Shown here: in pieces, positions 904-58,216 of the stretch
Layout of the letters: each line of letters opens with the position of its first letter
How positions within the stretch are numbered: position 1 is the first letter of the stretch
NCBI GenBank assembly: GCA_951406725.2
Contig: OX597828.1
Span: 29,760,001 to 29,824,000 of the forward strand
Reading direction: 5' to 3'
DNA length: 64,000 bases
From: Octopus vulgaris
Taxonomy: Eukaryota
The notes under the pieces: generated by a model
Database searches by the model: none
The model's input: only the letters and a program-made list of their open reading frames with translations
What the model was told of the DNA's origin: nothing
Made by a program: the position numbers and the translations under genes

Positions 904-907
<4 letters not shown>

Positions 908-1445
908 CAAAAGGGACATTAGCCATTTGAATGTGGCTAGGGACAGGGCAGGGCGGTGGGGGTGTTACTGATGCATTTAACCCCAGGCGATCATCAACGT
1001 CACCAGATAGGCTTGACACCATCACGGTGTCCTCTATCCTGCAAAGGGAGATCATTCCCCGAAGAAGCGGATGCCACATACGGACCCAGGTTTCAAGGTG
1101 TTTGCCTCTCGTCAACGTATTGTAGGCACCGCCCCTCGACGAACGACTCTCTGTGCAGGATATTTATATATAAATTTTCACGTAAATACATTTACTGATT
1201 TCGAAAATCTGTTCAACAGCAATAATAATTCTCTAAACGAGATATAGACAGTAACTGCTCCATAACAAAAGGGACATTAGCCATTTGAATGTGGCTAGGG
1301 ACAGGGCAGGGCGGTGGGGGTGTTACTGATGCATTTAACCCCAGGTGATCATCAACGTCACCAGATAGGAATGATCTCCCTTTGCAGGATAGAGGACACC
1401 GTGATGGTGTCAAGCCTATCTGGTGACGTTGATGATCGCCTGGGG
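904..1445 (-). mobile_element. Non-autonomous Penelope-like / retrozyme-like element, 358-bp unit with hammerhead, partial tandem plus inverted segment
   Basis: 108-bp direct repeat 904-1011 / 1262-1369 (1 mismatch, offset 358). 1368-1445 is the reverse complement of 981-1058. Hammerhead at 1071-1129. The 3' end abuts (TA)n at 863-905. Homologous along its whole length to 51297-51674. Confidence 0.75.
1071..1129 (-). ncRNA. Type I hammerhead ribozyme (U3 core variant)
   Basis: Minus strand reads AUACG-UUGACGA-GAGG-caaaca-CCUU-GAAAC-cugg-GUC-CGUAU. Stem I is AUACG/CGUAU and extends with bulges to GUGCC/GGCAU, stem II has 4 bp, stem III is short, and the GUC cleavage triplet is at 1085-1083. 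Confidence 0.75.
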
Positions 1446-27874: not shown

Positions 27875-28089
27875 TATTTATAATACTATACCAAGAACTT
27901 TCTCTTTGTCATCCTACTATATATATATATATATGTGTGTGTGTGTATTTGTGTGTTTGTGTGTGTGTGTGTGTGTTTGTTTTTGTGTGTGGATCAAACA
28001 CTTATGATTCAAACTTCATGGTGCTCTGATTTTCCATTTTGTCGCTAGTCGTCGGCCTTTAGGAGTTTCAATGAGAGTTAGCTGGAAGA

Positions 28090-28763
28090 GAGCCAATGTT
28101 TATAACACCATCCGATAGCATTGCTAGGCACTATACGGGCGTGACAGCCAATGACTTCAAGGGAAGATACTCTCAACACTTGCATTCATTTAGAACTAGA
28201 AACAGACAGAACTCCACTTACCTGTCACGCTCTCTCTGGAGACTTCGTGTCCTCCGAGATGAAACACCCAGCATCAAGTGGGCTATTGTTGAGAGGGCGC
28301 CACCATATTCACCCGGCGCCCCTAATTTCCAGGTCAGCCTCCGTGAAAAACTGCATATCATCTACCAACCCACAGTATCCATCAACAAGAGATACGAGGT
28401 ATCGTATTGCTCTCACCAGAGGTACACGCTTCTGGTAAACTTCAAGCCATTGGATTCCGACAATATGTGGGCATATTCATGTACACATATACTTATATAC
28501 TCCCCCATCTACCATCCTTTTCTATTTTCATCGCAACTACGCGAACGATTTCCTGTCTATCACGCGGTCAATTTCCTGTTCACCATGCGGTATTTTCTAA
28601 GTAATTGTTGTCGCTGATATACCAGCCTCAAACTGCAACATAACGTGACCTTCCTGGATCAATCACAGGCTTACGTCCAGTTATAAACACAGACTCCTGA
28701 TCGCCGGAGACTAGTCATGCGCTTGACACTCAAAGTATCAAGGAGTTTGAATTAAACGATGTG
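28090..28763 (+). mobile_element. Penelope-like element 3' end: GIY-YIG endonuclease remnant plus pLTR with decayed hammerhead
   Basis: ORF 28096-28617 (YTGVTANDFKGRYSQHLHSF...STYLSRSLW...IKWAIVERAPPY...SLREKLHII...INKRYEV.YCSH) resembles the PLE GIY-YIG C-terminus. A degenerate hammerhead lies at 28691-28748 and the element ends in (TA)-rich sequence. Confidence 0.75.
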
Positions 28764-33195: not shown

Positions 33196-33986
33196 TTTTA
33201 TAAGTTTCAGCCGAAAGGGTGTAGCTATACTTGGGCACTGCCAATAGACCGGCGGAGCAACACGACTCCGTTCTCATTCATCAGTGATAGATCCTCCCAT
33301 TATTTCACCATTTTTGTGGCTTATCAACATCGTGTACTTGGATCATACCTGATTATATATGTGTGTGTGTGTGTGTTTATGTGTGTGTGTGTATGTATGT
33401 GTGTTTGCGCGCGTATAATGTAAATGTGTGCACGTATGTGTGTGTTCTTCTTTTCTATGATACTAAGTTGTTCATAAAAATTCAACTACTCAGAACAATT
33501 GTTTTGATTATGAACCTTATCCAACTTTAATGTGATTGTTTGGGGTTCTTCCCGCTCAACTCTGGCTCACTCGATCAATTCTACGATCAACTATTTATCT
33601 CACGTGCTCCGTCCCTTTCACTGAGCGAATGATGTTCTTTGAATAAGATTTTTTCTGCTAATTCTCATAGAATGTGTTACCGCGTAAAAGTTCGTTGATG
33701 GATTTCCCTGCTTAATTCTCACAAAAATGCGTTATAAGTGTTCCCGATTGGTTCGTACTGGCCAACAGTGAAACACTTAAATTTCCAATATTTCATGTGG
33801 ACTGAAATAGTGCAACAGAACTTTTGAATCTCTTGAGCATGTATGAGAGCTGTGGCTGAAAATTTCTATGTGAACCAGTTTTTGATTGGTCACTGATTGA
33901 AGGAGTGTTGTTTATTGAAAGTATTTGAATAACGAAGATACTTAACGCTGAATTTGTCTCTCTCTTTTTGTTCTCTTATTTGACAG

Positions 33987-50649: not shown

Positions 50650-51116
50650 AGAAAATGGAGGAATAGATTCCTTTCAATCATCAACTTACAGATAATACCA
50701 ATTCATATAATTTATTAACTAATTAAATAGGAACATCCAAATCCAACAGAATAAAACAATATACGTCAATAAGTAAGATATACCATAAAAATAATAAACA
50801 TAAAATGGATCTTACAGCTGTTTCAGCCTATAGATAAAGGTATCTCATTGTGCCTATATAAGTCAGATATATTGAGGTAATATGCAGTTAATATAGGCAC
50901 AATGAGATACCTTTATCTACAGGCTGAAACAGCTGTAAGATCCATTTTATATGTATTATTTTTATGGTATTATCTTACTTATTGATGCATATTGTTTTAT
51001 TCTGTTTTATTCTGTTGGATTTGGATGTTCCTATTTAATTAGTTCATTAATTATATGAATTGGTATTATCTGTAAGTTGATGATTGAAAGGAATCTATTC
51101 CTCCAATTTCTTATTT

Positions 51117-51120
<4 letters not shown>
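50641..51120. mobile_element. ~220-bp fold-back (inverted pLTR-like) element inside (TA)n
   Basis: Arms 50641-50859 and 50891-51120 are near-identical reverse complements with a 31-nt spacer. Each arm carries GAAAC-agcu-GUA (50926-50937 on plus). (TA)n lies on both sides. Confidence 0.85.
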
Positions 51121-51157
<37 letters not shown>

Positions 51158-51208
51158 GTATGATATAATATATACATGTATGTATGTATATATATATTGT
51201 TACTGTTA

Positions 51209-51671
51209 GTGTTACTGTAGCTTTTTAGCCCCAGGAGATCATCGTCTCCAGCTGCCTTTAGACACACTTTATGTGCCCTTGAAGTATTTGCAAAGGGATG
51301 GCTTTTATACTTTACATTGTCAAGCGGTTACTGTTTACATCTCGCTCTGAGATTTAAGAATGCTTACAGTCAGTTTTTCGAAATCAGTGGCAGACGTCAC
51401 TAGAAAAAACTCTTATATATTTGCAAAGCAGGCCTTGTCTTTCATTGTGACCTGGTGGTTACCGCCCGTTGATAAGAGACAATAATCTCGAAACTGGTCC
51501 GTGCGTATCACTCAGGCTTACGAGGAAGGGATGGCCTCCCTTTGCAAATACTTCAAGGGCACAGAAAGTGTGTCTAAAGCCAGCTGGAGACGATGATCTT
51601 CTGGGGCTAAAAAGCTACAGTAACACCCCCACTTTGTGGTTAGCCATATTGAGATGGCTTTTATACTTTAC

Positions 51672-51674
<3 letters not shown>
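51209..51674 (+). mobile_element. Non-autonomous Penelope-like / retrozyme-like element, 356-bp unit with hammerhead, partial tandem plus inverted segment
   Basis: Inverted arms 51209-51298 / 51537-51626. 22-bp direct repeat 51297-51318 / 51653-51674 (offset 356). Hammerhead at 51463-51505 and (TA)n on both sides. Homologous to 904-1445. Confidence 0.75.
51463..51505 (+). ncRNA. Type I hammerhead ribozyme (U3-A8 core variant)
   Basis: CGCCCG-UUGAUAA-GAGA-caauaa-UCUC-GAAAC-ug-GUC-CGUGCG. Stem I pairs at 5 of 6 positions, stem II has 4 bp, stem III is minimal, and the GUC triplet is at 51497-51499. Confidence 0.7.
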
Positions 51675-51743
<69 letters not shown>

Positions 51744-52523
51744 TACATGCTGCTATTCAGTTAGTAAGGAACTCTGCATCCTTTAGGATGTAAATGAATA
51801 TTTGTCAATTTTGCCTTGATGGGATTCTTCCCTTTTAAATTCGTAATGCAACTTTAATTGTAAAATATGAATGAAGGTCGGAAATTGAAACGTGCGTAGG
51901 CAACATGAAATTGACTATTAGATAAATAAATTGATTTCTTCTGTGTTCGCACTATTCAATTATCTTATCTTATATATAAACTTCAAAATCACTAGAATTA
52001 AATGTTTCTCATCTATATTAAACGGTAATATAGAAAAATGGGATACTTTATACGACCAATCTAGTGCAGAGATTTCAATAAAAGATGAAATTTATAAACG
52101 TGATGAATTTAATCGTTTCACCAGACTCACAAATAGGATATTTTTCGTCAATTGAAAATACATATACAACAAAGTGACATTTCAGTGCATTATTTTACAG
52201 AAGACCAGACAAAACTAATTAGAAAAAAATGCTACTTGGAAACAATTTTCTATATAGAAATTTACACAAAAAATGAATTGTGCAAACTTTATATTGTTAG
52301 AAAAATCTTAATGAAAAATCATTGTATATACACCTTCTGGACACGTGAATTATTAATGTAACCAATAGATATTTGTTTTCAGTTGTGATAGCAATTTCAT
52401 CAATTGCAAAGTTTTTTGCATGACCTCTTGTTGCCGACTTAAAACGCTATAATAATCAGCCGATGTCATTTCATTCGGAACCGGATTTTGATGTTTCGAT
52501 ACATAAATTGAATAAGTAAGGTT

Positions 52524-57903: not shown

Positions 57904-58216
57904 TCTTTATATATAAAAGTGAAGTTGTGTGTCTGTCTCCTACGATTTAGATTCCTAACTACTCCCACATTTTGCAGTGCAGTGTAACCAAAAGCGGGTA
58001 AAAAAAATTACCATCATTTTCCCTCATTTTTAATGCATTTTTTTTGCTATTATATAAGGGAAGTAACTCTCTAAAAATGTATTATTAAATCTCAGAACGT
58101 AAAACGCTACGGTAACACCCCCCCTTTGTGGTTAGCCATATAGAGATGGCTATTATAAAAATGCTTATATAGTTATTTCCCTTACAAACCCGAGCAACGC
58201 CGAGCGATACTGCTAG
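57904..58216 (+). mobile_element. Non-autonomous Helitron (313 bp)
   Basis: Starts A|TCTTTATATATAAAAG, has a subterminal imperfect hairpin cccgagcaacgccgag, ends CTAG|T, and has no TSD. Confidence 0.8.

Follow-up and report, generated by a model that had tools for sequence, protein, structure and literature searches.

The closest described systems fall among retrozymes and Penelope-like elements, which we call PLEs. Metazoan non-LTR retrozymes (PMC7229834, Cervera and de la Pena 2020; bioRxiv 10.64898/2026.07.22.740005, Li, Clavereau, Pollet) have, like the element reported here, a non-coding 150-450-bp unit with one type I hammerhead and a GC content below 50%, occur in tandems, give a highly self-paired RNA, show larger target-site duplications (TSDs) and coexist with PLEs; in mussel the unit measures 350-390 bp. 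The same papers already propose mobilisation by PLEs, hitherto from co-occurrence and from homology to PLE pseudo-LTRs (pLTRs), and the 35 species of the bioRxiv study include no mollusc by its main text. EN+ PLEs of the Neptune/Nematis type (PMC8557442, Craig et al. 2021; PMC3846280, Arkhipova et al. 2013; PMC11167929, Frangieh et al. 2024) share with our element partial tandems, an inverted 5'-truncated copy, an optional tail at one end, TSDs of 8-13 bp, a (TA)n bias and a minimal dimer-type hammerhead; PMC4209133 describes such minimal hammerheads, some with a U3-A8 core, as well as pairs on opposite strands separated by 100-700 bp. Non-autonomous PLEs (MRC1 and other Chlamys derivatives, PMC8557442; short Heliconius Penelope elements, PMC6685494) are likewise short, ORF-less and moved in trans, with pLTRs and head-to-tail insertions; the 3' end of the Chlamys derivatives generally resembles that of the autonomous partner, which is a general tendency and not a strict criterion, and most Chlamys elements lack hammerheads.

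Here we describe a protein-free retroelement of ~357 bp, with a structured RNA and thousands of dispersed copies, that was probably copied and inserted in trans by the RT-endonuclease of an autonomous PLE, likely of Neptune type. It is a non-autonomous PLE or non-LTR retrozyme, a kind already described; it works like a PLE-mobilised retrozyme and has the structural features of a non-autonomous EN+ PLE, and its place among the non-LTR retrozymes is assigned from sequence and structure, with cleavage and a circular RNA as predictions. Its value lies less in its category than in clean footprint statistics and a ready test system: an ORF-less hammerhead unit bears the insertion signature of PLEs in full, and its copies record with unusual clarity how a PLE enzyme likely inserts DNA.

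The element also departs from each of its relatives. Unlike metazoan retrozymes as the accessible text describes them, it occurs mostly as dispersed insertions of one to two units with inverted arms and tails (the word 'inverted' occurs 0 times in PMC7229834), its hammerhead is minimal, as in PLEs, with a U3-A8 or U3.G8 core, and we find no matching pLTR. Unlike the EN+ PLEs cited above, it has no RT/endonuclease ORF, its tail is 47-59 nt long as against 30-40 nt, and the whole element is the size of a pLTR; and unlike the Chlamys derivatives, it has a conserved hammerhead and no detectable similarity to a partner. We found no published description of this family, which could stand under another label in Dfam, Repbase or octopus repeat libraries; two octopus repeat papers (PMC13282606, PMC8967140) do not use the word 'ribozyme' in their main text.

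The window, by which we mean the whole 64-kb stretch analysed, holds copy A (904-1445, minus), copy B (51209-51674, plus) and a short stub (Table 1). An earlier note on this DNA had described A and B as homologous yet diverged, both ending in (TA)n and neither encoding a protein, with unit lengths of 358 bp (A) and 356 bp (B) and a single type I hammerhead per copy, and all of this holds. Their local alignment scores 79 against 18.3±2.3 (maximum 27) in 500 dinucleotide shuffles, and an end-to-end alignment of the units has 332 aligned columns, 246 of them identical, and 50 gap columns, for an identity of 74% over aligned and ~64% over all columns (a four-way MAFFT alignment gives 62.5%). The unit lengths are the periods of direct redundancy, the longest ATG ORFs in the tandemised units span 74-75 codons in A and 41 in B, and PLE proteins used as queries match nothing within the window. 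The 5' inverted arms (78 bp in A, 90 bp in B), which are irregular in both copies, the U3 cores and the stub were absent from that note. The stub is flanked by an 8-bp TSD (58072-58079 and 58156-58163), and the first 47 positions of the A unit pair with positions ~295-301 in a covarying helix. A long inverted repeat around a short spacer, seen in the sequence only, lies at 50740-51130, just upstream of B and between two (TA)n tracts.

Table 1 Features of the three copies in the window
Feature	Position	Strand
Target microsatellite, (TA)n, adjoining copy A at its 3' end	863-906	
Full 358-bp lineage A unit, terminating at the upstream tail-less 3' end (unit position 358)	907-1264	-
Predicted long rod extending hammerhead stem I of A (unit ~102-232)	1033-1163	-
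Minimal type I hammerhead of A with UUGACGA core (U3.G8 wobble), 4-bp stem II, GAAA, self-complementary helix III strand, GUC	1078-1120	-
A unit positions 1-47, the optional 3' tail of other copies, internal in A	1218-1264	-
5'-truncated upstream unit of A (positions 254-358), partial tandem (pLTR), 1 mismatch in 105 vs full unit	1265-1369	-
Inverted arm of A (unit 207-284), identical to main arm, ending before the regular 3' end	1368-1445	+
Degenerate (TA)n tract on the left of copy B	51119-51197	
Inverted arm of B (unit 219-308), 3 mismatches in 90 vs main arm	51209-51298	-
22-bp upstream partial unit of B (terminal redundancy)	51297-51318	+
Full 356-bp lineage B unit, tail-less 3' end	51319-51674	+
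Type I hammerhead of B with UUGAUAA core (U3-A8), predicted to be cleaved after 51499	51451-51521	+
(TA)n tract adjoining copy B at its 3' end	51674-51745	
Third copy, B-like 76-bp stub: 20-bp inverted tail piece and 56 bp of 3' region	58080-58155	

A search of the 2.8-Gb animal assembly with one query per unit, with 40 candidates scored for each, returns 1,977 first-look candidates for A and 3,186 for B. A 26-nt degenerate tail motif has 2,806 exact genome matches as against none for its reversed control, where matches are not loci, as one locus may carry several. The copies lie on most chromosomes and belong to at least four lineages, A, B and two encountered in addition, C (~358 bp) and E (362 bp); unit length stays within 356-362 bp, and pairwise identity, taken from single representatives, is 43-69%. 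The A unit is also present in public runs under four organism labels, one source of which may be the assembly's own sample, and in all four of the runs examined it is covered in each of 30 bins, with the joint of position 358 to position 1 present in contigs. Read depth in the DNA runs is up to ~50-fold higher over the 3' region and tail than in mid-unit, an excess explained by truncation and diverged lineages that leaves room for an unsampled coding relative. The second unit of one B tandem (L218, 1567-1925) switches midway to a diverged lineage that lacks a hammerhead core, a chimera of two lineages that possibly reflects a template switch. Two tail-motif patterns stand apart: seven matches at 119-bp spacing (G000:C1:11168336-11169075), apparently a shorter tandem derivative of the unit, and one inverted plus six direct matches spaced 353-359 bp (G000:C1:20002423-20004756), which by this pattern form an array of ~six units, longer than every locus read.

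The insertion footprints derive from 120 A/B locus records that reduce to 95 distinct loci (60 records were picked with a query that included the tail); these are top-scoring matches, and thus biased to long, young copies. Sixty-two of the loci are head-to-head inversions and 33 single arms, and 14 of 29 lineage E loci are inverted. The A/B copies combine a partial tandem and variable 5' truncation with fixed 3' ends, which lie either at the unit end (358) or 47 nt into the next unit; the optional tail is 47 nt long in A, B and C and 59 nt in E. A tail-less arm is joined to a tailed one in 49 of the A/B inversions, one is tail-less twice, none is tailed twice, and in 12, among them both window copies, an end is irregular; the E inversions divide into 10 with one tailed arm, none tailed twice and four with an irregular end. 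Exactly one arm therefore carries the tail in 59 of the 60 inversions with two scorable ends (A/B and E), and an autonomous PLE family described below follows the same rule in 5 of 5, which sharpens the published 'often only at one end' to a testable model of two-strand priming. The 5' ends of the arms are scattered, fall within 15 nt of each other in just 14 of 62 A/B inversions, and abut or overlap in 49, which argues for two separately truncated cDNAs and not for one inverted strand.

The earlier note had further proposed a mini-PLE or retrozyme family mobilised in trans from a tandem or circular RNA, and the footprints of the genome-wide copies support mobilisation in trans by PLE machinery; it had also proposed targeting to (TA)n, which is strict in some lineages alone. 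At least 10 nt of (TA)n lie beside regular 3' ends in 66/71 cases in A and 31/38 in E; targeting is weak in B (27/71), which inserts into AT-rich DNA with TSDs. At the non-(TA)n loci, TSD-like strings of 8-13 nt, with boundaries uncertain by a few bases, are shared between the flanks in 17 of 30 cases as compared to 29 of 870 mismatched flank pairs. Full dimers, for which that note had suggested a search, do occur, with 63 of 157 arms longer than one unit, four reaching two units and the longest spanning 3.5, and with two or more consecutive hammerheads in the tandems L009, L010, L013, L019, L021, L028 and L054, as compared to one in each window copy.

Segments within one A insertion differ by 1.2-1.4% vs 3.5% between loci, and diagnostic sites disagree within an insertion at 12/921 (A) and 25/299 (B) as against 40.5% and 38.3% between loci, so that both arms come from the same template or master copy. 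Variants in multi-unit arms are mostly private to a unit; a few are common to two units of one array or match other sub-lineages, and arrays are thus not purely copies of one monomer.

A motif scan of both strands of the window places the two hammerheads at 1115 (minus) and 51469 (plus), together with one further weak and unrelated candidate at 33327, and cleavage in A is predicted between 1083 and 1082. At the gathering score Rfam matches neither window unit; B aligns over the full Hammerhead_HH9 model (E 2.6e-6, 32.2 bits, under the gathering score of 52), and A gives no hammerhead match even at E 5. Both cores begin with the non-canonical U3, not C3. Among the copies, in counts that are anchored on motifs and hence conditional on the patterns used, the 3-8 pair is U.G in 64/68 and U-A in 4/68 of A, U-A in 37/38 of B and 35/35 of E, and C-G in 18/18 of C, with U3-A8 in 15 of 50 genome-wide matches of one A sub-lineage; the cleavage triplet is GUC in 154 of 159 motifs, and the helix III strand, whose sequence and length differ by lineage, is self-complementary in 145. 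Because C3-G8, U3-A8 and U3.G8 pairs occur in different lineages, natural variation makes it possible to ask whether PLE hammerheads need to cut at all. In monomer folds helix III is absent; it appears as an 8-bp intermolecular helix when two A hammerheads are co-folded; the window B copy has a weaker helix III variant and co-folds otherwise. These models predict a hammerhead of the dimer type.

Folding of the units against shuffles gives z-scores of -3.4 and -3.3, and of -3.8 to -4.4 when they are folded as circles in the sense orientation, with weaker antisense values except in C. Between lineages, one compensatory change is seen in the helix that brackets the upstream 3' end and one in the hairpin that precedes it, counts that are inflated by the relatedness of the sequences; across the whole unit, both sides have changed in 20 of 53 predicted pairs. 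A conserved TTTTCGA(A/T)ATCAGT and a TATA-like stretch at unit positions ~55-105 (1160-1210 minus; 51373-51423 plus), ~50 nt upstream of the hammerhead, are a possible internal promoter, judged by motif.

We propose that a partial-tandem copy would be transcribed into an RNA longer than one unit, and that the hammerhead would cut as a dimer, within tandem transcripts only. A PLE protein, probably dimeric, would bind the conserved multi-hairpin at the unit junction and cut both strands of a (TA)n or AT-rich target ~10-12 bp apart; two cDNAs would then be primed on the same template, at unit position 358 and 47 nt downstream (59 nt in E), and the head-to-head joining of these 5'-truncated cDNAs would produce an inversion in which one end, and only one, bears the tail. 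The footprints fit a PLE protein acting by target-primed reverse transcription: for an anole PLE, both strands are cleaved and extended, two internal start sites bound the tail and a dimer is predicted (PMC11167929). Each target strand would have its own start site on a single template, as the one-tail rule and the alleles common to both arms suggest. The cleavage site is not supported as a preferred 5' end, as 5' ends fall within 2 nt of it in 3/74 arms of A (p 0.085) and 0/83 of B, and a cut linear monomer is therefore not the usual template. We give the uncleaved tandem RNA about an even chance of being the template and the religated monomer circle slightly less than that; both fit the footprints, and the within-array variants favour neither. 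Maintenance of a dimer-type hammerhead argues that cleavage matters at some step, and the U3.G8 core of the youngest lineage, which we take to lower hammerhead activity, suggests that cleavage need not be efficient; we found no published paper on the effect of this core.

A classical circular RNA retrozyme cycle is a variant of the same proposal, with trans-mobilisation common to both, in which dimeric hammerhead cleavage and circularisation by a host ligase make the circle the obligatory template and rolling-circle reverse transcription regenerates the tandems. We regard it as possible, if somewhat doubtful. It is consistent with a unit length and hammerhead kept under covariation in an ORF-less element, with the longest arms and their mostly private variants, with the ~six-unit array, and with the absence of a 5'-end pile-up at the cleavage site, which a seamless circle predicts; 350-390-nt circles are abundant in mussel (PMC7229834). 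However, the youngest lineage has spread with the U3.G8 core, the autonomous 775-aa PLE makes 4.27-kb tandems without a convincing hammerhead, arms rarely reach two units, hammerhead mutants have no effect on anole PLE insertion in vitro (PMC11167929), and only one of nine dimers from Xenopus cleaved (bioRxiv 2026.07.22.740005). A bolder reading, which we think unlikely, would make the family an old independent radiation of viroid-sized (356-362 nt) circular hammerhead RNAs that have lost their sequence kinship to living PLEs and hijack Neptune proteins via RNA structure alone; the insertions would then prove that a PLE dimer in vivo assigns one target strand to each start site on a single template.

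Mobilisation in trans by a PLE, which we favour, calls for a partner, and at least two young PLE families of this genome, each with two ORFs, have intact RT-GIY-YIG frames, of 775 and 781 aa. Both proteins have a CX4CX2C linker; PMC8557442 assigns a CX2-5CxxC linker to Neptune and Nematis and the (TA)n bias to Neptune. The named relatives of the genome's PLE protein are from bivalve molluscs. The 775-aa family, very young and of Neptune type (L165-L172 and L105-L134 of G000, e.g., C1:27841626-27850767), has a 454-aa ORF1 overlapping the RT-EN frame, a 4.27-kb unit, a three-unit tandem and many near-identical intact copies (99.7-100% identical). It has a 46-nt tail: its copies stop at either of two sites separated by 46 nt, followed by (TA)n, and in all five inversions that have both ends in view one arm stops at the first site and the other at the second. 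We find no convincing hammerhead in its unit. The 781-aa family (L091-L101; 479-aa ORF1, 781-aa RT-EN) has a shorter tail of ~35-38 nt; its minimal hammerhead has a U3-A8 core and shares its helix III palindrome with lineage E. In its long 3' region TGACGTC and ATTGG motifs recur and a TATA-like box precedes the hammerhead, features that we would guess to act as a promoter. A 357-nt template and near-identical intact candidate enzymes in one genome make a compact in vitro system. Neither blastn nor nhmmer detects DNA similarity between the unit and the two active PLE families or six other PLE loci, and the partner is thus identified by matching footprints only. A decayed endonuclease-like frame in the window (28075-28617, plus), noted by eye and without Pfam support, belongs to an old family with 150 matches listed; we rejected it as a partner, as the 149 other matches listed are at most 74% identical and mostly contain stops.

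It is improbable, in our estimate, that the unit is instead the pLTR, or the 5'-truncated 3' end, of an unsampled autonomous PLE family, with the short copies as dead by-products. The greater depth of the 3' region and tail, the bias of the sample to top-scoring loci and the retrozyme-pLTR homology reported in Xenopus (bioRxiv 2026.07.22.740005) would all fit such an origin. We compared two RT-EN and two ORF1 proteins by tblastn with 90, 60 and 32 locus records, which overlap and of which the 60 were picked by the 3' end alone, and find PLE protein matches in L135, L160, L190 and L241 only. These are neighbouring PLEs except in L160, where a C copy directly follows a mid-RT fragment, a point in favour of a pLTR origin; an endonuclease end running into the unit is found in none of these records, and the first observation that, by the earlier note, would refute its reading, namely that the unit is always the pLTR of a longer PLE, is not borne out in the loci sampled. 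The one apparent link, L102, also considered as an autonomous parent, is a separate lineage C insertion that lies ~600 bp beyond the (TA)n at which the PLE ends. Every tandem, like the contigs of all four runs, passes from position 358 directly into position 1, and the four lineages, with sub-lineages of their own, point to repeated copying of the short unit itself. A lineage E copy beside a PLE (L079), considered as that PLE's end, proved to be a further tandem mini element of 362 bp, lying on the opposite strand.

A satellite, or an element that moves as DNA (like a MITE or Helitron, or amplified locally by unequal crossover), spreading without reverse transcription, would share the inverted ends and TSDs, and unequal crossover has been proposed for retrozyme arrays (bioRxiv 2026.07.22.740005), but this is highly improbable, being already largely refuted by the 3'-anchored, 5'-variable architecture, with unequal inverted arms rebuilt at each locus and one-sided tails, and opposed by dispersal over most chromosomes and by strand-specific RNA structure and hammerhead covariation. 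Two insertions lie within PLE ends: a B copy with a 12-bp duplication sits inside the AT-rich 3' end of a PLE resembling the 775-aa family (L038/L221), and an A-like copy lies within the (TA)n tract at an end of the 775-aa family (L121).
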